64,000 nt of DNA. It comes from Phycisphaerae bacterium (lineage in GTDB: Bacteria; Planctomycetota; Phycisphaerae; UBA1845). A program made the translations under genes and the position numbers. Below the pieces are notes generated by a model. The model saw only the letters and a list, made by a program, of their open reading frames with translations. It searched no databases and was not told where the DNA came from. This document shows, piece after piece, positions 11,528-21,397 of this stretch (position 1 is the stretch's first letter; each line of letters begins with the position of its first letter). The DNA lies in the NCBI GenBank assembly GCA_029260025.1, contig JAJDDZ010000192.1, positions 1,495-65,494 of the forward strand, in the 5' to 3' direction.

Positions 11528-11582
11528 TCCTTGGTCAATGGTGCGCCGGGAACGGTTCTAACCTGACGGTTTGCGGGTTCCG

Positions 11583-14297
11583 ATGAAGAAGAGTCCGAAT
11601 ATGGTTAATCAGCGAGCCAATCTGAAGCAGTGTTGGTCGCGCTCGGCGCCGCTTGTTGCAGTTCTTGTTGCATCGTGCGTTGGGGCGGTGGTTTGCGATG
11701 CGCGCGGCGAGGATGACGCCCCTTCCAAGAACAAGCGTCTCGTCTATCAGTTCGGTTTTGACGAACGTTCAGACGGAAATCTGGAGACTATTCCCAAATA
11801 CTGGGAGCCGTTGCGCATGCCTGGGTTCCCCGGTTTTGCGGTCGGGCGTTTCGACGAAGAGGTCGGGCATGCCGCCCCACCGTCGTTTCGCCTCGAGAGC
11901 AGTGGGCGCAATGTTGCTTACGAATATGGCGGGCCGGCTCTGGCGGTTCGAGCTTCTGGAAATTACCGGGTCATCGCCTATCTGCGCCCTGATCATTTGG
12001 AGAATGCCCGCACTTGTCTTTGTGCCTTCTTTCGGGACCGACATGGAAACGCAATCCTCGATTCGTTCGTGCGTTCACCCTATATTTCGTCTGCCGATGC
12101 GAGCGACGACTGGATTCCCGCGCAGTTGTTGCTGCCGACGGCTCCTTTTGATGCGAGGACGATTGGGCTTGCCGTTTGGGTGTTGCAGGAATCGACGTGG
12201 ACTACCGCGACCCCATCGGCGCGGGATATTCAGCGCGTTGATGTCAGCGGGGGCGTGTGGATCGATGACATAAGCGTCATGACTCTCCCGAGAATCTCGC
12301 TCGACACCTCGACACCAGGGAACGTGCTTGAGCCAAATGACAAGGCAGAGCTGGTCATTCGCGCGTCGGATTATGAGACGGGTTCGATGGACGGCGTGCT
12401 TACGATCTGGGATGCGGCGGAGACGGTTGTTTCTACGCGCGAGCTGGCTATTACGCTTGGCGGTGGCGAGCATCGAAACACGGTTTCGATCGAAGAACTT
12501 CCTGTCGGGTGGTACCACTCGAAGCTGGCGGTGAGCGCGGGCGGCGCGAAGGTATTGACGCGATTCCTTTCGTTCGCGAAGGTGCCTGCTTCTGCTTCGG
12601 AATCGACTCGGGGTACGACGTCGTTTGGAATATCGATCAATTCGGGAAGGCGGAGTTCGCCACTGACAGAGCTATCGCTCTTGCGGCGGCAGCTCTGCGA
12701 TTCGGTGAAGATTCCGGTTTGGTCTGGTCATCACGACCTGTCTCCGGGTGCTTCGTATGCCCTTGAGCATGACCTGCTATTGCAGGAGTTGTTGAAACGC
12801 GGGTTCTCGATGACCGCAGTTCTTGGTGAGATTCCTACATTTTTTACCGGTATGAACGGCAATTACTCGGGTACGGCGGTGGATTTGCTGGGTGATTCGC
12901 CAAGTCTTTGGCAAGATTATCTCGCTGGGGTTGCAGCTCCGTACGCGAGTACCTACCGCTGGTGGCAGGTTGGTGCGGATGGTGATTCTGTTAATACGAC
13001 CAGTGATGCCTACTTGCGGGCAGTTGGGCAAGTCCGCCAGACGCTGGGTCCGTACATTCTTGTGCCGCGGATGACGGTCGCGATTTCGCATGGAACAGAT
13101 CCTGAAGGGGCGAGACTTCCTGTGGAGCAAGTCACGACGATGATCGGCGCGTCTGTTGCTGTGGATCGTATCGCTCCTGTCGCGTCGTCGCTTCGCTCGA
13201 AGGGTTATGAAGAGCTGAGCGCTCTGGTGGGGTTGCATGACGCGGCGCGGTTCGATCGACTGGGACGCCTGGCGAATTGGTCACAGCGTCTGGTTGCGGC
13301 GCGACATAGCGGTGCGAGCGTTGTCTACGCGCGTCCGACCTGGGAGGTCCGTGATACGGTTTTTGGTCCCGTGACCGAGCCAAAGGAAGAGTTTATCCTT
13401 CTGCGAACTCTTGCGGATGTGCTTCGTGAATCTCAACCCGGACCGAAGGTCCCACTTAGTGGCGGTGTTCAGTGCTTTGCTTTTACTGTTGGTGAGGGCG
13501 AATCAATTTTCGCGATCTGGGATCCCGCCGCACCGCCCGAAGGCATTGATCACACGATTCAACTTGGGGCTGCGACTGAGGTTCTTGATCTGTGGGGTCG
13601 ACGTGAATCTCTGGTCCGAGACAAACAAGGTCGTCATCGGATTCGGTTGACGAGTATGCCTGTTTTAGTGCCGGGGGTGGAGTCGTGGTTGGTGGATTTT
13701 CGTAGCTCTCTTTCGATCGTTCCTAACCGGGTTCAGCCAGGAACCGAGCTTGTAGAACATCGACTCGAGTCGAGCTATTTTGGCGCGACGCCGGTGACCG
13801 GTCGGGCAGCCCTTCATACGCCGGAAGCGTGGCGAGTAGAGCCTCGGGCGTTTGCAATGAGTTATTCATCCGGTGAGCCGGCGGAGGTCATTCAAACGAT
13901 TCGTTATTCTCACAGGGAACCTGCTGGCGTCAGACAGATTTCAGCCCAGGTCTTGCTGGATAACAAGGACTATTTTTTGGAGATCCCTTTGCAAGTAGAG
14001 ATTGCCCACGACGATTTTCAGGTTCGCGGGGCGGCTGTCATGGAGGGTAATTCGCTAGTGGTTCATCAATATGTGAGTAACCAGAGCGGCGAGCCAGTGA
14101 ACTTGCGCGGATCAATTGCTGTTCCTGGAAAGATGCGCCAATACCGCCCTTTCACTGCGATCGCACCGGGTGAGACCCAGCATGTCGAGTACCGATTTCG
14201 CGATGCGGGTGGACTCGCGGGTCGGCAAATTCTCTTGGGGCTGCGTGAGATTCGCGACAATCCACGCGTGCATAACTTAGAGCTGACGGTTCCCTAG
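11583..14297 (+). CDS. large secreted hypothetical protein (N-terminal jelly-roll/CBM-like region)
   Basis: ORF 11571..14297 with the start set to ATG 11583 (MKKSPNMVNQ...). The hydrophobic signal region is APLVAVLVASCVGAVVCDA. No catalytic family is recognisable by eye. The segment ...GGVWIDDISV resembles the end of a CBM4/9-type sandwich. Confidence 0.6.
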   Translation: MKKSPNMVNQRANLKQCWSRSAPLVAVLVASCVGAVVCDARGEDDAPSKNKRLVYQFGFDERSDGNLETIPKYWEPLRMPGFPGFAVGRFDEEVGHAAPPSFRLESSGRNVAYEYGGPALAVRASGNYRVIAYLRPDHLENARTCLCAFFRDRHGNAILDSFVRSPYISSADASDDWIPAQLLLPTAPFDARTIGLAVWVLQESTWTTATPSARDIQRVDVSGGVWIDDISVMTLPRISLDTSTPGNVLEPNDKAELVIRASDYETGSMDGVLTIWDAAETVVSTRELAITLGGGEHRNTVSIEELPVGWYHSKLAVSAGGAKVLTRFLSFAKVPASASESTRGTTSFGISINSGRRSSPLTELSLLRRQLCDSVKIPVWSGHHDLSPGASYALEHDLLLQELLKRGFSMTAVLGEIPTFFTGMNGNYSGTAVDLLGDSPSLWQDYLAGVAAPYASTYRWWQVGADGDSVNTTSDAYLRAVGQVRQTLGPYILVPRMTVAISHGTDPEGARLPVEQVTTMIGASVAVDRIAPVASSLRSKGYEELSALVGLHDAARFDRLGRLANWSQRLVAARHSGASVVYARPTWEVRDTVFGPVTEPKEEFILLRTLADVLRESQPGPKVPLSGGVQCFAFTVGEGESIFAIWDPAAPPEGIDHTIQLGAATEVLDLWGRRESLVRDKQGRHRIRLTSMPVLVPGVESWLVDFRSSLSIVPNRVQPGTELVEHRLESSYFGATPVTGRAALHTPEAWRVEPRAFAMSYSSGEPAEVIQTIRYSHREPAGVRQISAQVLLDNKDYFLEIPLQVEIAHDDFQVRGAAVMEGNSLVVHQYVSNQSGEPVNLRGSIAVPGKMRQYRPFTAIAPGETQHVEYRFRDAGGLAGRQILLGLREIRDNPRVHNLELTVP

Positions 14298-14491
14298 CTG
14301 TCTGTCGGTATCCTAAGTTCGACTCTTATTCCTTTCTTGCTTCGTTTTTGCCTATCTTTGCGCGCGGTTTGCGATGTTAATCGTTGTTGTTGGCGGCGAT
14401 GGTTGGTTGGGGCTAAAATGGTGGGGCGATGGTTTTCGGGGACGATTCTTCGGAAAATTAGTCGTTGGCGCTATTTGGCGCATTGTCAACT

Positions 14492-15208
14492 ATGATCGAA
14501 GCCATGCTCTTCGACGTGGGCGATACTTTCGTTCATTTCGAAACTAGCAATCTAAAGAAGTTTCTCGAGCTGGCGGCGACGCCGGCGTGGGAACGTCTGC
14601 GCGAACTTGGAATGAACCCGCCGCCGTTTCGTTCCTACGTTCGATCGTTGAAGTTACCCGCCATTTATGAAGTCATCTGGTCGCGTATTTGCCGCCGCGA
14701 AGCGCGACTCATGCCCGCGCTTCTGTCGAAGCACCGGCGGATGGGTATGGATTTGTCAGAGGAGCAATGGGCCGAAGTTCTCTCGCGGTGCGTGCCCATT
14801 GTTCGTCAATACTTTGAGGCGGATGAAGAGGCGGTTTCTGTCATGCAGAAGCTGCACGCGAAGGGGATCAAGATGGGGATCGTGTCGAACACGATGTTCC
14901 CTGCGTTCGCGATTGACGATGTGCTCGAACATGACGGGCTGTTGGAGTGGTTCCCCGTTCGCATTTATTCTTCTGATGTTGGGTACATGAAACCGCACCC
15001 GAAGATATTTGAGGCGGCGCTGGATCAACTGGGCGTGCGTGCTGACCGAACGGTTTTCGTTGGCGATCGTATTGACAAAGACGTGAAGGGAGCGTCGAGA
15101 CTCGGGATGACGACGGTCTTGATCACGCGCAACGGAGCAACGCCCGGCGGCAAGCCTCGCCCAGATCACGCGATCAATCGTTTGTCAGAACTTCTATCGC
15201 TCGTCTAA
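14492..15208 (+). CDS. HAD-superfamily hydrolase (subfamily IA-like)
   Basis: MLFDVGDTF carries motif I (DxD/DxG). ...IVSNT is motif II. ...VFVGDRIDKDVKGASRLGMTTVLI covers motifs III/IV. Confidence 0.8.
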   Translation: MIEAMLFDVGDTFVHFETSNLKKFLELAATPAWERLRELGMNPPPFRSYVRSLKLPAIYEVIWSRICRREARLMPALLSKHRRMGMDLSEEQWAEVLSRCVPIVRQYFEADEEAVSVMQKLHAKGIKMGIVSNTMFPAFAIDDVLEHDGLLEWFPVRIYSSDVGYMKPHPKIFEAALDQLGVRADRTVFVGDRIDKDVKGASRLGMTTVLITRNGATPGGKPRPDHAINRLSELLSLV

Positions 15209-15225
15209 TCCGAGGGCACTGGGTT

Positions 15226-15837
15226 ATGGCTGACTTTCTTGCTCCTGACCAGCTTCTAACCGCCTACTCGATGGGTCTCTTCCCGATGGCAGATCATTCG
15301 GGGGAGGTGCAATGGCTTGCTCCGGACCCGAGGTGCATTATCGAGCTGTATGCGTTCCGGGCGTCAAGGTCGCTTCGGTCGGTGATCAAGCAGAATGTTT
15401 TTGATGTGACGATCGACGAATCCTTCGAGGAGGTGATCGACGCGTGCGCCAATCGTCCGGAGGGAACATGGATATCCGCTGAGATTCGATCAGCCTACGT
15501 CGCCTTGCACAGGGCCGGTTTTGCTCATAGCGTCGAGAGCAGGCAGGAATCTCGTCTGGTGGGGGGGCTTTATGGGGTTGCGCTTGGAGGCGTGTTCTGC
15601 GGGGAGTCGATGTTTCATCAAGAAACGGATGCGTCTAAGGTCGCGCTGGCAGCTTTGGTTCAGCGAATGCGAGAGCGCGGATACGCCTTGCTTGATATTC
15701 AGTTTATGACCGAGCACCTCCGTCAATTCGGCGCGATCGAGATTCCTCGGCACCAGTACGAGGCGCGGTTGGAGGATGCTGTGGGAATGGCATGCTCTTT
15801 TGTCGATGATGAACCGAGTGTATTTGAGAGCAAATGA
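15226..15837 (+). CDS. aat: leucyl/phenylalanyl-tRNA--protein transferase
   Basis: LLTAYSMGLFPMADHSGEVQWLAPDPRCII..., GGLYGVALGGVFCGESMFH and LLDIQFMTEHLRQFGAIEIPR are typical L/F-transferase blocks. Confidence 0.9.
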   Translation: MADFLAPDQLLTAYSMGLFPMADHSGEVQWLAPDPRCIIELYAFRASRSLRSVIKQNVFDVTIDESFEEVIDACANRPEGTWISAEIRSAYVALHRAGFAHSVESRQESRLVGGLYGVALGGVFCGESMFHQETDASKVALAALVQRMRERGYALLDIQFMTEHLRQFGAIEIPRHQYEARLEDAVGMACSFVDDEPSVFESK

Positions 15838-17810
15838 CCAGTACGGAGACTGTGATCGCACGTAACCGGCGCATTAGCGATGAACTTTTTTTGCGCAACA
15901 TGCGCGTGCTATGGCGGCGCGATCCTGCGCTGGCGGCGCGTGTTGACGCGGTTGATGACGTCGATCGCGTGGCTGTTGAGGCTGCCAGGAACGGCGATGC
16001 GACCGCACGCGTATCCTTGCCCGATGGGAACAGCGCGTATCTGCATAGTCGTCATCAGCCAGGCGCCGAGGCGAAGAAATGGGCGGATGCGATCGACCGG
16101 GAGGGGAATTTTTGTTTCGTTGTTTCGGGGATTGGGCTGGGGTATCACATTCGTGCCTTGTTCGATGATCTTCACGATGAGACGGTCGTTGTTTGCCTAG
16201 AGCCATCCATCGAATTGATGGCTACTGCGCTGACTTGTGTTGATTTTGCGGACCTGATCGACGCGGATCGTCTAATCTTTCTGGTGGACGATGATAAGAC
16301 GCGACTTCATGCACGATTACACAGGCACAGCACGCTCTTGATGCTCGGGACGCAGTTCGCCAAGCATGTTCCTTCTGTTCGTCGCGATGAGCCCGCGTAC
16401 AACCGAATTCACACCGCGTTGACGGAATTTGTGACGTACTCGCGGATGTCGCTGCTGACCCTGCTTGGGAATTCGCGGATTACTTGTAAGAACATCGCGA
16501 TGAATCTTCCCAATTATGTTGCGACGCCGCCGATTGATTTATTGCAGGATCGGTTTCGCGGTTGTCCAGGAATCGTCATCTCGGCTGGTCCTTCGCTGTC
16601 GAAGAATCTGGATCAGCTGGGCGCGCTCAAGGGCAAGGCGGTTCTTTGTGCGGTCCAGACAGCTCTTCGTCCGCTGACTCTGCGAGGGATCGTTCCTGAT
16701 TTTGTGACGAGCCTTGATTTTCACGAAATGTCGAGCAAGTTTTATGAGGGCGTGGAAGGTCTCGAGGATGTCCACCTTGTGGCAGAACCCAAGGCGACGT
16801 GGCATGTCACGGATACTTATCCCGGCCCGATGTCCCTATTGGATAATGAATGGGCGCGGCTGGTTGCTGGTGACGAGCTGGGTGGTCGAAGCGGGTTGAC
16901 GGCTGGGGCGACGGTTGCCCATCTTGCATTTTACCTAGCGGCGTATATGGGTTGCGATCCGATTATTTTCGTCGGGCAGGATCTGGCGTTTACCGGGCAT
17001 GTTTTTTACGTGCCCGGTGTTGAGATACATCGTGCGTGGCGGGGCGAGATCAACCGGTTCAATTCGATGGAGCAAAAGGAGTGGGATCGGATCGCTCGCA
17101 ATAGGCCTATCCTTCGCAAAGTTGTTGGGAATGATGGGTCGGAACTCTACACCGACGAATTGTTGTTCACATACTTGGAACAATTCGAAAAAGACATCCG
17201 TACGGTTCCCGCCACGGTCGTGAATGCGACCGAGGGTGGGGCGCGGATTCGTGGTACGTCGGTGATGTCGCTGGCGGATGCGACGGAGAAGTTTTGCAGA
17301 GGGCCGATTGATCCTGCGCTGTTTGAGTATCGAAAAGACGCGAATTGGTGGGACGAATCGAAGCTCGCTTCGCTGAAAGGCGTCTTGGAAAATCGCATTG
17401 CGTCTCTTGATGAGGTCGTGAAGGTTTGTGACGAACTGCTCGACTTATTCAAGGAACTGAGAGGTCTGACCGACGATCCCACGAAATTCAATAAAAAAAT
17501 TATTCGCGTGGACGAGCTTCGCGTGAAGGTTCATCAGGACACGCGTGCTTACGAGATGGTCAATGCCGCGACGCAGACGGCTGAGCTTCGGCGGTATCAC
17601 GCCGATCGAATGATTAGCGCCGCCGCAGGCGACGACGTTGAACGCGCGAAACGGCAGATTCGGCGCGACTCGGAGTTTATCGGCAGCGTCGGAACCGGTG
17701 CGCAAGATGTTCGGGAAATGCTCGAAGAAACGCTCCAACGGGTGAATGATCCTCCGCGTCGCAATGTTCCACTTTCGCGAGCAGAGAAAGACTCGGGGGT
17801 GTCGCTTTGA
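15834..17810 (+). CDS. Maf-like / DUF115 (MptE-like) family protein, putative glycosyltransferase
   Basis: 658 aa. The central block is GCPGIVISAGPSLSKNLDQLGALKGKAVLCAVQTALRPLTLRGIVPDFVTSLDFHE ... GATVAHLAFYLAAYMGCDPIIFVGQDLAFT, which I recall as the DUF115/motility-accessory-factor core. The start overlaps the aat stop (ATGA). Confidence 0.6.
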   Translation: MTSTETVIARNRRISDELFLRNMRVLWRRDPALAARVDAVDDVDRVAVEAARNGDATARVSLPDGNSAYLHSRHQPGAEAKKWADAIDREGNFCFVVSGIGLGYHIRALFDDLHDETVVVCLEPSIELMATALTCVDFADLIDADRLIFLVDDDKTRLHARLHRHSTLLMLGTQFAKHVPSVRRDEPAYNRIHTALTEFVTYSRMSLLTLLGNSRITCKNIAMNLPNYVATPPIDLLQDRFRGCPGIVISAGPSLSKNLDQLGALKGKAVLCAVQTALRPLTLRGIVPDFVTSLDFHEMSSKFYEGVEGLEDVHLVAEPKATWHVTDTYPGPMSLLDNEWARLVAGDELGGRSGLTAGATVAHLAFYLAAYMGCDPIIFVGQDLAFTGHVFYVPGVEIHRAWRGEINRFNSMEQKEWDRIARNRPILRKVVGNDGSELYTDELLFTYLEQFEKDIRTVPATVVNATEGGARIRGTSVMSLADATEKFCRGPIDPALFEYRKDANWWDESKLASLKGVLENRIASLDEVVKVCDELLDLFKELRGLTDDPTKFNKKIIRVDELRVKVHQDTRAYEMVNAATQTAELRRYHADRMISAAAGDDVERAKRQIRRDSEFIGSVGTGAQDVREMLEETLQRVNDPPRRNVPLSRAEKDSGVSL

Positions 17811-19471
17811 GGGTAATTGCGGCGCTTAATGCGAATTTGGACCGGACGCCGGTCGGGACGCGGAGTCGATTGGCAGACGAACTTGGCGGTGCAACGATTT
17901 TGGCGCGAACCGTCGAGCGCGTTTCTCAGATTTCGTCTATTGCCGGCGTTTTTGTGTTTTGCCCATCGGATCAGCTTGATCGGTGCGGCGCGATTCTGGC
18001 GCATACCCGCGCGACGACTTGCCAACACAACGCGGGTCCGCCGCCCTGGTCGAACTTGGTTTGTTCGGCGCGAAAATGGTCGCTCGACGGGTGGCGCGGC
18101 GGAATCGGTGGGGCGACATCGTTTGATGAATACACGGATGTCCGATTGATTGCCGGTCTGTTGGAAACGACTAAGGCTGATGCAGTCTTGTCGGTCCCGC
18201 CGGGGGCGGTTCTGTTCGACCCAGCCCTTGGCGAGAAGATCATTGATCATCGCAAAGCAATTGGCGAAGAGGCGAAGATGAGCTTCATTCAGGGTCCGCC
18301 AGGGTTGACCGCGGTGCTTTTGGATGCTGACGTGATTCGCGAACTTTCTGATAAAGCGCTGCCCATCGGTGCCATTTTTGGATACAAACCCGAGTCTCCG
18401 CAGAAGGATATGATTTTCGAGCCCTGTTGCTGTCCGACGTCTTCCGATGTTCGGTTTGGGACGGGTCGACTTATTGCGGACACGGATCGCGCAATCGCTC
18501 GGATTGAGCGGTTGTCATCTTCCAGGGCGAAACTATCCGCCGAGGCGATCGGTCGTCTCCTAATCGAAGAGGATGAACGCGGATGTGAAACTTTTCCTTA
18601 CGAAGTGGAGATCGAGCTTACGACCGATGACCCATATCCCTCTGGGGTTCTTCGCCCGCGTGGGTCGCGCGTTCCCACTCGTGGGCCCATCTCGATGGAG
18701 CATGTTCGCAAGGTTGCTTCGGAGCTTTCCGGACGGGACGACATTCTTTGCGTCCTAGGCGGTTTCGGCGATCCGCTTTGTCATCCGCAACTATCTGCCG
18801 TGCTGGAAGCACTAAGACCAAGCGAGTTGGCCGCGACCGGTGGCGGCGTCTTTGGACTTGCGGTTCGTACCTCGGCTGTCGATCTGACGGCTGAGGTCAT
18901 CGATATGTTAATCGCCCATCGCGTTGATGTTCTCAACGTCACGCTCGACGCCTGGACGCCGGAGACCTACCAGGATCTTCAAAGTCCCGGTGGTGAAATG
19001 ACTGCGAATCTTGACGCGGTGCTCGAAAGTCTCGATCGACTCGCCGCCGCCAAAGCCGATTGTCTGTCAGTGGCCCCCCTGGTTGTGCCCGAGTTCTGTA
19101 AATCGCGCGATAATCTTCATGAGCTGGACGATTTCTACGATGGATGGATGCAACGATTAGGCATCGCTTCGATCACCGGTTTCAATCACTTCGGGCAGCG
19201 TCTTGAAGATCGCGGCCTAATCAAGATGGCCCCCGCCGCTCGCACGCCATGTCGCCGGGTTCGGTCTCGGGCGTTGGTGCTTGCGGATGGCCGGGTGACG
19301 CTCTGCGATCAAGACTTCGAGGGGAAGCATACGATCGGAACGATCGAGGAATCGACGATGGGGGAGTTGTGGGCTGGTGAGTCGCTTTCGCAGGTGCGAG
19401 AAGCTCACGTCTCGGGTTCGGCGGAGCTGCCGGTGATCTGCGGATCTTGCGAGGAGTGGCATCGACCTTAG
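17807..19471 (+). CDS. fusion protein: SpsF/cytidylyltransferase-like N-domain plus radical-SAM-like barrel lacking the CxxxCxxC cluster plus SPASM/twitch-like C-terminus
   Basis: The TTG start overlaps the upstream stop (TTGA). The N-terminus MRVIAALNANLDRTPVGTRSRLADELGGATILARTVERV parallels the SpsF-type IIQARxGSTRLPGKxLxxLGGxPLL. The middle has ...EIELTTDDPYPSG... where rSAM enzymes carry CxxxCxxC, followed by LGGFGDPLCHPQ. The C-terminus is CRRVRSRALVLADGRVTLCDQDF...ICGSCEEW. Confidence 0.55.
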   Translation: MRVIAALNANLDRTPVGTRSRLADELGGATILARTVERVSQISSIAGVFVFCPSDQLDRCGAILAHTRATTCQHNAGPPPWSNLVCSARKWSLDGWRGGIGGATSFDEYTDVRLIAGLLETTKADAVLSVPPGAVLFDPALGEKIIDHRKAIGEEAKMSFIQGPPGLTAVLLDADVIRELSDKALPIGAIFGYKPESPQKDMIFEPCCCPTSSDVRFGTGRLIADTDRAIARIERLSSSRAKLSAEAIGRLLIEEDERGCETFPYEVEIELTTDDPYPSGVLRPRGSRVPTRGPISMEHVRKVASELSGRDDILCVLGGFGDPLCHPQLSAVLEALRPSELAATGGGVFGLAVRTSAVDLTAEVIDMLIAHRVDVLNVTLDAWTPETYQDLQSPGGEMTANLDAVLESLDRLAAAKADCLSVAPLVVPEFCKSRDNLHELDDFYDGWMQRLGIASITGFNHFGQRLEDRGLIKMAPAARTPCRRVRSRALVLADGRVTLCDQDFEGKHTIGTIEESTMGELWAGESLSQVREAHVSGSAELPVICGSCEEWHRP

Positions 19472-19674
19472 TCGGGCGCAAGGAAAACCCCACGATCCGA
19501 TTGGGCCGAATTGCGGCGTCGGTATCGCCGCCCACGCTTACCATCGCTCGGAAGATAGAGCTCCACAATTCATAGGTTCTCGAATCATGGCAGGGTTGTT
19601 TCACGGGAATGCCCCGCCGATCAACGCTTTTTTAGCCGATTTGAGTCGCTCCCAACGTTCGGAGAACGACCCCG

Positions 19675-19702
19675 TTCAAAAAATCGTGGTTCGTGGTAGA
19701 CT
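19675..19702 (+). promoter_or_regulatory. candidate sigma70-type promoter for SRP RNA
   Basis: TTCAAA (19675-19680), a 16-nt spacer, then TAGACT (19697-19702), directly upstream of the structured region. Confidence 0.3.
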
Positions 19703-19704
19703 AC

Positions 19705-19900
19705 ATCTCTCTGCGAGGAGCCGGGGGAGGGAGCCGACGCTGGTTGACGACCAGGTCCCATGCAATGCGTGGTTCAGGCAACGGGTCAGACTGGAGACAG
19801 AGCAGCCCACTTGTTTCATTCAGGTGCCGTGGATCACCTGGTCGTCAACGAGCGCCGGCGGTATCCGGGGTGAATTTCGCGCCCGCTATTGTGGCGCTTG
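19705..19900 (+). ncRNA. ffs: signal recognition particle RNA (ends approximate)
   Basis: A 19-bp helix with one mismatch forms between 19738-19756 (cgctggttgacgaccaggt) and 19836-19854 (acctggtcgtcaacgagcg). Its apical part contains GUCAGACUGGAGACAGAGCAGCC (19785-19807) and GGUGCCGUGGAU. These resemble the 4.5S domain IV sequences GUCAGGUCCGGAAGGAAGCAGCC and GUGCCGGGAU. It sits immediately upstream of dnaX-ybaB-recR, as scr does in Bacillus subtilis. Confidence 0.65.
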
Positions 19901-19921
19901 AGGGATGTTTTTGAGGGCAAA

Positions 19922-21397
19922 ATGTCGTACCGCGTATTAGCGAGGGCCTACCGAAGTTCGACGTTCGATGAAGTCGTCGGGCAGGACGCCATTGCAACTA
20001 CGCTTAAAAATGCAATCACCGGCGGTCGCGTGCACCACGGGTACCTTTTTACCGGGACGCGCGGTGTTGGCAAAACGTCGATGGCCAGGATTCTCGCCAA
20101 GGCGCTCAACTGTCTTGCGTTTGATGATGCGACGGCTACTCCATGTCTTGAGTGCGATTCGTGCAAGGCGGTTTCGGAGGGCGAAGACGTGGACGTCGTC
20201 GAGATCGACGCCGCGAGCAACACCGGCGTTGATAACATTCGCGAGCTTCGCAGTAACGCGACGCTTCGCCCTGCCCGGGCACGTTTTAAGATATACATTA
20301 TCGACGAGGTTCACATGCTCTCGCCGGGGGCGTTCAACGCGCTTCTCAAGACTCTTGAGGAACCTCCCCCGCATGTGAAATTTATCCTCGCGACGACCGT
20401 GTCGCACAAGGTCCCCGCTACGATTCAGAGTCGGTGTCAGCGGTTCGACTTTCGGGCGATCGATGTGGATTCGATTACAGCCCACCTCGAGCGACTGATC
20501 CAGGCGGAGAAGATTGAGGCGGAAGACGGCGTTCTGCGCCGGGTGGCTCGCCTGGCGAACGGGTCGATGCGAGACGCTCTTTCGATTCTTGATAAGCTGC
20601 TGTCGTACGACGCGAAGCACCTAACGCGAGAGGTGACCGACCAGGTCATTCCGCCGCCTCACGACGAGCTATCGCTGGGGATTATTGATCGCGTTTCGGA
20701 GAATGACGCCGGTGGGGCGCTCAAGGCGCTCGACGACGCCCTTCAAACGGGTCGCACGGCTGAGCAGTTTTGCACTCACCTCATCGAACATCTGCGAACG
20801 CTAATGCTCCTGAACGTTTGCGGGGCGAAGACGGACTTGATCGACGTATCCACATCGATGCGCGAGACGCTTGTTGACCAATCGAACCGGTTCGACGCCC
20901 CGACCTATGTCTACATGATTACACTTTTGGAGGAGCTTCGTCGAAGCGTCAAATCCAGCGGTGCAGCCCGGGCACTGGCGGACGCTGCCGTTGTCCGGTT
21001 GGCGATGAGCGCTCGCTTTAGCGATATCAATGCGTTGATCGAACAGATCGATCAGCAAGCTCCGGGTGCTCTCGACGAATCGAATCAGCAAACGCTCCCG
21101 GCAAAAAAAAAAGGCCCTGACGTCGGACGGGTATTAGCTTCGTCACAATCCCCACTCGCCGAGGTTGTTCAGCCAGCGAAGTCGGCAGGATCTTCGAACG
21201 ACCATCACACGCGAGAAGTTGCAACACCAATTCCGACGCGTGTGAGTGAGGCAGAAACCAAGCCCTCTCCGGAAGAATGGCACGAGGCCTCGCGTGATCC
21301 GCTGGTGACACGCGTGAAAAACGCGGTGGATGGGACGCTCATGGACATCAAGCAGCGGACGATGCCGCAACCCGACAAGAACGATTCAAACGATTAG
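19922..21397 (+). CDS. dnaX: DNA polymerase III subunits gamma/tau
   Basis: MSYRVLARAYRSSTFDEVVGQDAIATTLKNAITGGRVHHGYLFTGTRGVGKTSMARILAKALNC, a Zn module CLECDSCKAV, and box VII SRCQRFDF. Start taken at ATG 19922 within ORF 19889..21397. Confidence 0.95.
   Translation: MSYRVLARAYRSSTFDEVVGQDAIATTLKNAITGGRVHHGYLFTGTRGVGKTSMARILAKALNCLAFDDATATPCLECDSCKAVSEGEDVDVVEIDAASNTGVDNIRELRSNATLRPARARFKIYIIDEVHMLSPGAFNALLKTLEEPPPHVKFILATTVSHKVPATIQSRCQRFDFRAIDVDSITAHLERLIQAEKIEAEDGVLRRVARLANGSMRDALSILDKLLSYDAKHLTREVTDQVIPPPHDELSLGIIDRVSENDAGGALKALDDALQTGRTAEQFCTHLIEHLRTLMLLNVCGAKTDLIDVSTSMRETLVDQSNRFDAPTYVYMITLLEELRRSVKSSGAARALADAAVVRLAMSARFSDINALIEQIDQQAPGALDESNQQTLPAKKKGPDVGRVLASSQSPLAEVVQPAKSAGSSNDHHTREVATPIPTRVSEAETKPSPEEWHEASRDPLVTRVKNAVDGTLMDIKQRTMPQPDKNDSND

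Follow-up and report, generated by a model that had tools for sequence, protein, structure and literature searches.

We describe here two overlapping genes that encode a motility-associated factor (Maf) glycosyltransferase and a partner protein whose sequence places it in a lineage of radical S-adenosylmethionine (SAM) enzymes. They lie in a 64,000-nucleotide (nt) stretch of DNA from a Phycisphaerae bacterium (GenBank assembly GCA_029260025.1, contig JAJDDZ010000192.1, positions 1,495 to 65,494 of the forward strand), referred to throughout, at its full length, as the window. Maf enzymes are the main bacterial route by which sialic acid-like sugars are placed onto flagellin, and most have resisted reconstitution. 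The two genes (15834-19471) appear to form a conserved functional unit, and on balance we favor the reading that their products make up a two-subunit nonulosonic acid (NulO) protein glycosyltransferase, most likely for flagellin. The order and overlaps of the genes, the identities and folds of the domains, the lost cluster motif, the fusions, the neighborhoods and the conserved pairing are observed; the physical complex, the donor sugar, the flagellin acceptor, the role of the partner and the role of its iron-sulfur (Fe-S) site are what we infer from comparison of sequences. Maf proteins, the leucyl/phenylalanyl-tRNA--protein transferase Aat, HAD hydrolases, twitch domains and the spiro-SPASM model are already known; what appears to be new is the conserved, translationally coupled Maf-pseudo-radical-SAM pair. 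This pairing was not found in the searchable literature on spiro-SPASM, DUF115/SPASM, or radical SAM with Maf or flagellin NulO glycosylation, and a 2026 paper on Treponema flagella makes no mention of Maf or radical SAM.

Conservation of the gene pair

The pair and the domains of the partner are located in the window as follows.

15834-17810, + strand: Maf-type glycosyltransferase gene, 658 amino acids (aa), three domains
17807-17810, + strand: TTGA shared by the stop codon of Maf and the start codon of the partner, read from the DNA
17807-19471, + strand: partner gene, 554 aa, three domains
17807-18526, + strand: N-terminal domain of the partner, residues ~1-240, divergent cytidylyltransferase (GT-A-like nucleotidyltransferase) fold, by structure prediction only
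18590-19216, + strand: middle domain of the partner, residues ~262-470, radical-SAM-type partial TIM barrel lacking CxxxCxxC
19229-19471, + strand: C-terminal twitch/SPASM-type domain of the partner, residues ~475-554, PF13186 at 36 bits against a threshold of 21.5

At the junction of the two genes (position 17807) the DNA reads CGCTTTGAGG, in which the Maf stop codon and a TTG start codon overlap as TTGA. Support for the TTG start comes from 55 homologues, which align with the partner from residue 1 onward (MKVIAA...). We surveyed the partner gene and its surroundings in 80 species-genome loci from GTDB, nearly all of them metagenome-assembled genomes (MAGs) of Phycisphaerae or other Planctomycetota, in 66 metagenome loci, and in eight loci obtained by exact look-up; locus counts were pooled and de-duplicated, the species-genome and metagenome collections being independent of each other. 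In 98 of the 108 unique loci with enough upstream DNA, the gene that immediately precedes the partner, in the same orientation, encodes a Maf, and an exact 4-nt overlap of Maf stop and partner start is present in 89 of 120 unique loci (74%), as ATGA in 70, GTGA in 15 and TTGA in four. Isolated 4-nt overlaps are frequent in operons; the conservation of the Maf/partner overlap across loci exceeds chance. The pair is kept down to about 28-35% identity of the partner, while all other neighbors change, and in two lineages Maf and partner are fused into a single polypeptide, P0260 (1233 aa) and P0265 (1224 aa, from a Phycisphaeraceae MAG, NCBI MEX2671825.1). The co-occurrence of a DUF115 gene with this partner, raised in a first-pass annotation of the window, is borne out by these counts, with NulO, flagellar or aat/HAD genes as the third partners.

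The surveyed loci come mostly from one phylum and the counts are not phylogenetically independent, which leaves some room for a reading in which the two genes share nothing more than inherited synteny and the partner is an independent enzyme of unrelated function. We consider this highly improbable, given that the pair outlasts every other neighbor at such low identity, that the 4-nt overlap recurs in three quarters of the loci, that fusions are present in two lineages, and that both genes move together between NulO/flagellar and housekeeping loci.

The Maf protein

The 658-aa protein is a Maf/DUF115 protein, as the first-pass annotation had proposed, and has three domains. The central MptE-like/DUF115 domain (PF01973, residues 219-387) scores 127.4 bits against a gathering threshold of 34.6, and the Maf N-terminal domain (PF20157) is a marginal pass at 26.4 bits against 23.5. 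The PseD model NF050051 aligns over residues 98-633 with 101.7 bits, far under its cut-off of 670. An AlphaFold2 (AF2) model of the protein, with a predicted local distance difference test score (pLDDT) of 84.8, finds Magnetospirillum Maf (5MU5) as its top Foldseek match (E 6.7e-21, 704 aligned columns, TM-score 0.54-0.56), and the matches below it reach the central domain only. Some homologues are named MptE, a pterin diphosphokinase, by NCBI; this identity was rejected, as the HPPK of M. jannaschii matches the central domain alone and 5MU5 matches the whole protein.

The partner protein

The AF2 model of the whole partner is of high quality (pLDDT 92, predicted TM-score 0.92). Its family comprises several hundred clusters at 50% identity and is conserved across Planctomycetota. 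The sequence features described below indicate that the family is a radical-SAM/twitch enzyme lineage that has for the most part turned pseudo-radical-SAM. The barrel is recognized by the radical-SAM model PF04055 (32.7 bits against 29.5). However, the CxxxCxxC motif that would hold the radical-SAM cluster is replaced in the barrel by EVEIELTTDDPYP (residues 266-278, nt 18602-18640), which is invariant in homologues, with TTDDPYP at the position of the cluster motif itself, and GGFGDP is found instead of the GGE motif. In two homologue alignments E266, E268, E270, T272, D275 and P278 are invariant and there is no Cys at the site of the cluster motif. Across the family, CxxxCxxC is absent from 147 of 149 representatives at 50% identity; the other two, P0164 and P0174, retain it at the same position. 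With this motif lost, the partner is therefore a pseudo-radical-SAM protein and should be incapable of radical chemistry with S-adenosylmethionine. Two close relatives of P0164 and P0174, namely P0390 and P0392, also keep CxxxCxxC, and this clade (P0174 at L081 10001-11635, L090, P0164, P0390 and P0392) has GEPLL where the window has GFGDP.

The C-terminal half of the partner resembles BtrN (the best Foldseek match, with a target TM-score (TMt) of 0.72), DesII, SuiB, SkfB and anSME. Four Cys of the twitch domain (C482, C500, C545 and C548) are invariant in 56 sequences, and the protein ends in an invariant CxxCxEWHRP. A profile search of the PDB matches the twitch domain of BtrN (E 9e-8) and aligns all four one-to-one to four BtrN Cys, which we take to be the ligands of the BtrN auxiliary cluster. 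They are the presumed site of one auxiliary [4Fe-4S] cluster; a single, twitch-like cluster is indicated because only four Cys are conserved, as opposed to the seven-Cys SPASM pattern. The partner thus shares its four twitch Cys with BtrN, and its C-terminal fold with both BtrN and DesII, two radical-SAM enzymes for aminosugar-type substrates that have a twitch/auxiliary-cluster domain; it differs from them in lacking the CxxxCxxC cluster and in having an additional N-terminal domain of nucleotidyltransferase fold. DesII acts on a nucleotide-sugar, which parallels the presumed link between the partner and a cytidine monophosphate (CMP)-sugar.

TIGR04321, the uncharacterized spirochete family "spiro-SPASM", is the best NCBIfam match for the partner and for every family member tested, and JGI labels some of the planctomycete members "spiro-SPASM protein". 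The match covers the barrel and SPASM domain, and for some members it extends over a portion of the N-terminal domain. All scores are under the cut-off of 250 bits (108.6 for the partner in the window and 72-209 for ten relatives), and the partner family is therefore a sister of TIGR04321 and not a member.

In the structure-based comparison, the N-terminal domain has the fold of the CMP-sugar synthetases and IspD (PF02348, PF12804 and PF01128; SpsF/NeuA/KdsB type). Foldseek matches it to IspD (2xwn, TMt 0.61), to a Leptospira cytidylyltransferase (6oew, TMt 0.68), and to CMP-Kdo and CMP-Neu5Ac synthetases, with E-values of 2e-7 to 1e-5; for 2xwn, 6oew, 1h6j and 6ifd the probability is 1.00 and TMt is 0.6-0.68. 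Like these enzymes, it has a Gly/Arg-rich loop after strand 1, here the conserved GTRSRL at residues 17-22. Unlike them, it carries a large, invariant, family-specific insertion, RKWSLDGWRGGIGG (residues 89-102), and its catalytic basic residues are not clearly conserved. At the level of sequence, residues 1-250 have no Pfam match and match no nucleotidyltransferase or cytidylyltransferase hidden Markov model (HMM) even at E<=10, while PDB profiles give a weak match to IspD only (E 0.11). Alignment of the domain to the NeuA-like proteins encoded next to the pair in relatives is likewise weak (hhalign, 17% probability), and leaves its basic residues off the invariant R14 and K23 columns of those proteins.

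The first-pass annotation described the partner as a cytidylyltransferase/SPASM fusion. The SPASM half of that description is supported by its HMM, just as PF01973 supports the DUF115 assignment, and the cytidylyltransferase half is seen in the fold and in no HMM, CTP_transf_3 included; the pseudo-radical-SAM barrel between them had been missed. The same annotation proposed that the N-terminal domain activates the sugar, in which case it would make the CMP-sugar, Maf would transfer it, and the HAD hydrolase encoded upstream would be the phosphatase of the pathway. The fold of the domain agrees with such a role, as does the resemblance of GTRSRL to the GxGTR(L/M) nucleotide loop; in addition, some homologues match PF12804, one is named SpsF-like by JGI, and the window has no other cytidylyltransferase gene. 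However, a separate, canonical CTP_transf_3 gene lies close after the partner in relatives (L081, L083, L085, L086 and L091-L093) and adjoins the pair in NulO loci, where a second synthetase would be redundant. Together with the HMM and alignment results given above, and with a generic HAD hydrolase that has no Asp at +2 and that two thirds of the loci do not encode, this makes sugar activation by the partner doubtful and the scheme as a whole unlikely.

Sugar and flagellar neighborhoods in relatives

The best-resolved contexts of the pair are flagellar filament operons. In L081 and L089 the gene order is two flagellin genes, FlaG, FliD, FliS, a 202-aa DUF8042/TP0873_N protein, Maf and partner, followed by CTP_transf_3, NeuB, a UDP-GlcNAc-2-epimerase-like protein (Epimerase_2), a methyltransferase, an acetyltransferase, a PseB-like dehydratase and a PseC-like aminotransferase. 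This is a textbook flagellin nonulosonic acid glycosylation island, and the partner within it has an intact CxxxCxxC. NeuA and NeuB, in some cases with NeuC, are encoded directly downstream of the pair in L079, L080, L085, L086 (where the pair is fused), L090-L093, L125, L130 and L137. In L016, fliD-fliS abut aat-Maf-partner, and in L050 and L141 flagellin is about 5-9 kb away. Both surveyed lineages that keep CxxxCxxC (L081 and L090) lie in NulO loci, which is consistent with an ancestral catalytic role of the partner that was linked to the sugar pathway.

The window protein shares PF01973, PF20157 and the three-domain fold of 5MU5 with the Maf flagellin glycosyltransferases. It differs in scoring far under the cut-off of the PseD model and in its setting, next to aat and away from sugar and flagellar genes. 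The flagellin and NulO genes that are encoded alongside it in relatives (L081/L089, L016, L079, L080, L085, L086 and L090-L093) are not found in the window. The first-pass annotation had called the operon a possible glycosylation module with an unknown substrate. The identity of the Maf and the NulO/flagellin loci of relatives support the former, and the substrate is not entirely open, given that the pair in relatives occurs in clusters with flagellin, FliD and FliS and with NeuB, NeuC, PseB and PseC.

A gene of about 200 aa for a DUF8042/TP0873_N protein, a name taken from a Treponema pallidum protein, immediately precedes Maf in several of the divergent loci (L081 7340-7948, L084 2656-3255, L087 7463-8131 and L099 ~11538-12143). 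This protein may be a flagellin-side adaptor. No DUF8042/TP0873_N homologue was detectable in the window, where the 203-aa aat product fills that place.

The aat and HAD genes

Two further genes on the same strand precede the pair in the window.

14492-15208, + strand: HAD-IA family hydrolase gene, 238 aa; opens the operon, role in the module unproven
15226-15837, + strand: aat, leucyl/phenylalanyl-tRNA--protein transferase gene, 203 aa; apparently canonical
15834-15837, + strand: ATGA shared by the stop codon of aat and the start codon of Maf, read from the DNA

The DNA at position 15834 reads GCAAATGACC, in which the stop codon of aat and the ATG of Maf overlap as ATGA. Reading of the DNA confirms the four same-strand genes with ATGA and TTGA overlaps of the first-pass annotation, and corrects its 18-nt gap between HAD and aat to 17 nt. 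Orthologues of the HAD protein start with MIEAVLFD, which supports its start at 14492.

The aat product matches PF03588 (E 1e-67) and scores 201.9 bits against the equivalog TIGR00667, whose cut-off is 143.55; alignment to E. coli Aat (2z3k) shows that the catalytic/specificity motifs GESMF and D-x-Q are kept. The HAD product matches PF00702 (76 bits) and exceeds the cut-offs of TIGR01509 and TIGR01549, with no equivalog reached. Its PDB relatives are generic, the best being HADs of the PH0459 type. A role as NulO-9-phosphate phosphatase was considered and dropped, as the match to NANP is weak and partial (E~5e-6) and far behind the PH0459-type HADs. Motif I of the protein is FDVGDT, in which the nucleophile Asp is present, with Gly at Asp+2 and Asp at +3. 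The form LFD(V/L/I)GDT is conserved in all orthologues (L001, L003, L005, L007, L018, L024, L032, L033, L039, L049, L064, L065 and L069) and is atypical compared with the DxDxT of HAD phosphatases.

Among related loci, aat is upstream of Maf in 62 of 93 and the HAD gene is upstream of aat in 30 of 92. Both are limited to the Phycisphaerae clade in which the pair is away from sugar genes. The distance between aat and Maf varies, and only six of 41 loci would allow a 4-nt overlap. The tight coupling to aat that the first-pass annotation singled out is thus conserved as a neighborhood, but within one Phycisphaerae clade, with loose spacing and a canonical Aat; involvement of the HAD phosphatase, also suggested there, finds no support beyond membership in the operon. 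Until shown otherwise, we regard aat and HAD as lineage-specific passengers of the operon.

If the link to aat were functional instead, Aat could attach an aminoacyl residue to an amino group on the sugar or glycoprotein, or could place Maf, the partner or flagellin under N-degron control. The position of aat directly upstream of Maf is held over 40-85% identity and outlasts the downstream dnaX-recR-rpoN synteny, the two genes overlap in the window, and the NulO locus L081 encodes a FemAB-like acyltransferase of the aminoacyl-tRNA type, all of which could be read in favor of such a link. However, the equivalog score and the E. coli motifs indicate that this is probably the ordinary N-degron enzyme of the genome, the spacing to Maf is not maintained, and neither the loci that combine the pair with NulO genes nor the more distant lineages have aat. 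We therefore judge a functional link to be very unlikely.

A model for the Maf-partner unit

In the arrangement that we favor, Maf would be the catalytic transferase, O-linking a CMP-activated nonulosonic acid of the Pse/Leg/Neu type to protein, most likely flagellin. The ancestor of the partner would have been a radical-SAM/twitch enzyme with a cytidine nucleotide-binding domain, acting on the CMP-sugar or on a step of glycosylation. In the lineage of the window, the partner has lost the radical-SAM cluster and retains the nucleotidyltransferase fold, the strongly conserved polar interior of the barrel and the presumed four-Cys auxiliary Fe-S site. Its present role would be that of an accessory subunit without radical chemistry, matched in amount to Maf by translational coupling, that binds the cytidine nucleotide or sugar donor and/or stabilizes or regulates Maf. 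In the Phycisphaerae clade to which the window belongs, the module has left the sugar/flagellar locus and would be co-transcribed with a canonical aat and, in some loci, with HAD.

This logic would be analogous to that of GlfM for Maf-2, on the donor side instead of the acceptor side. GlfM is required for Maf-2, and Maf systems need extra factors (bioRxiv 10.1101/2023.12.03.569772). The two systems are alike in that an accessory protein is encoded downstream of maf, but GlfM is a small four-helix protein and the partner in the window is a 550-aa protein with a cytidylyltransferase fold, a pseudo-radical-SAM barrel and a twitch domain.

Several observations weigh against the two-subunit reading. 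The partner is found without an adjacent Maf in ~9% of loci (for example L025, L026, L058, L083, L101, L126 and L127), and the fusions may have arisen as artefacts, through a frameshift or misassembly where the two genes overlap by 4 nt. The failure of HMMs to recognize the N-terminal domain, its weak alignment to NeuA-like proteins and the lack of a clearly kept canonical Arg/Lys weaken the case for binding of a cytidine nucleotide, and the strongly conserved polar residues of the barrel may mean that the partner is still an enzyme of non-radical chemistry and not an accessory subunit. Finally, tblastn detected no NeuA, NeuB, NeuC, PseB, PseC or flagellar filament gene in the 64 kb of the window, as the first-pass annotation had stated for the nonulosonic acid synthase genes, and just four of about 147 unique loci have flagellar filament genes in the vicinity of the pair.

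The scarcity of filament genes bears in particular on the acceptor. In Phycisphaerae, the module might glycosylate another protein of the surface, of pili or of an S-layer-like structure, or have a general O-glycosylation target, with the flagellin link being ancestral only. The aat-linked clade has the module among housekeeping genes (ffs, dnaX, recR, rpoN, nadB and recJ) and not among flagellar ones, a 908-aa secreted protein is encoded just upstream in the window, and Maf-like NulO transferases outside flagella have reportedly been discussed for Tannerella. However, the flagellar filament operons described above are the best-resolved contexts and, to our knowledge, all characterized Maf proteins act on flagellin. 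Furthermore, the absence of flagellar neighbors is weak evidence because planctomycete flagellar genes are typically scattered. A non-flagellin acceptor therefore seems rather unlikely to us, and flagellin remains the acceptor that we propose for the two-subunit transferase.

Variant arrangements and surroundings of the operon

Several loci show other arrangements. The P0260 fusion (L086 8001-11702) is directly followed by CTP_transf_3, NeuB and Epimerase_2. In L084 (3297-8346), Maf paralogues of 588 aa and 568 aa are located on both sides of the partner and are followed by a PglD-like acetyltransferase. L083 (10001-13448), where the partner is an orphan as in some ten loci in all, has the gene after miaA and two genes before CTP_transf_3; it belongs to an anammox planctomycete, as indicated by a hydrazine synthase alpha gene 4 kb away. 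In a second Phycisphaerae clade (L040-L043, L045, L046, L048, L050, L054, L056, L057, L059, L060 and L062), inspection by eye shows genes for a DnaK/Hsp70-like protein (~560-600 aa) and a J-domain/FHA-like protein (~330 aa) downstream of the pair, replacing ffs-dnaX.

In the window, 194 nt separate the start of the operon from the preceding gene, which encodes the 908-aa secreted protein (11571-14297, + strand). This protein has a signal-like hydrophobic segment at its N-terminus and has no Pfam or NCBIfam match; conservation is limited to L001, the closest relative (76% identity). Downstream of the operon are a bacterial small signal recognition particle (SRP) RNA at 19749-19846 (+ strand) and then dnaX, recR and rpoN, a layout that corresponds to the classical ffs-dnaX-ybaB-recR. 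The SRP RNA, located between the partner gene and dnaX, was missed by a scan of the whole window at the Rfam gathering threshold, which returned no matches, and was found by a focused scan (RF00169, 44.4 bits against a gathering threshold of 40, E 2e-8, full-length model). Because the RNA occupies these positions, a 104-aa open reading frame at 19587-19901 is spurious. A scan of 14200-20000 for promoters and terminators gave sites no more frequent than in shuffled sequence.

Significance

The window itself shows only the detached form of the module, and the function proposed here comes from genomic inference; it offers a testable lead for specialists in flagellar glycosylation and radical-SAM enzymes. 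Accessory factors of Maf such as GlfM are only now emerging, and the partner is a concrete candidate Maf subunit to test. A bolder proposal, which we put forward tentatively and hold to be possible though doubtful, is that the Maf sialyl-like transferases of Planctomycetota, and probably also those of the spiro-SPASM lineage, are obligate heterodimers with a hitherto unrecognized radical-SAM/twitch-cytidine-binding subunit, mostly a pseudo-enzyme. Through its CMP-sugar-binding domain and the four-Cys Fe-S cluster that it keeps, this subunit would make glycosylation donor- or redox-gated, and in Phycisphaerae the conserved operon would, through Aat, link glycosylation to N-degron proteolysis. 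Should the obligate heterodimer be real, the partner could be the "missing component" behind the poor reconstitution of Maf. If the partner is a plain sugar-modifying enzyme, the analysis would still annotate a widespread family to which no function had been assigned and would show aat and HAD to be lineage-specific passengers. The partner family would also be a clear natural example of a radical-SAM enzyme that has turned into a pseudo-enzyme and retained its auxiliary cluster. In spirochetes, motility requires the glycosylation of flagellin, and the association with Maf would provide a functional lead for the uncharacterized spiro-SPASM family of the spirochetes.

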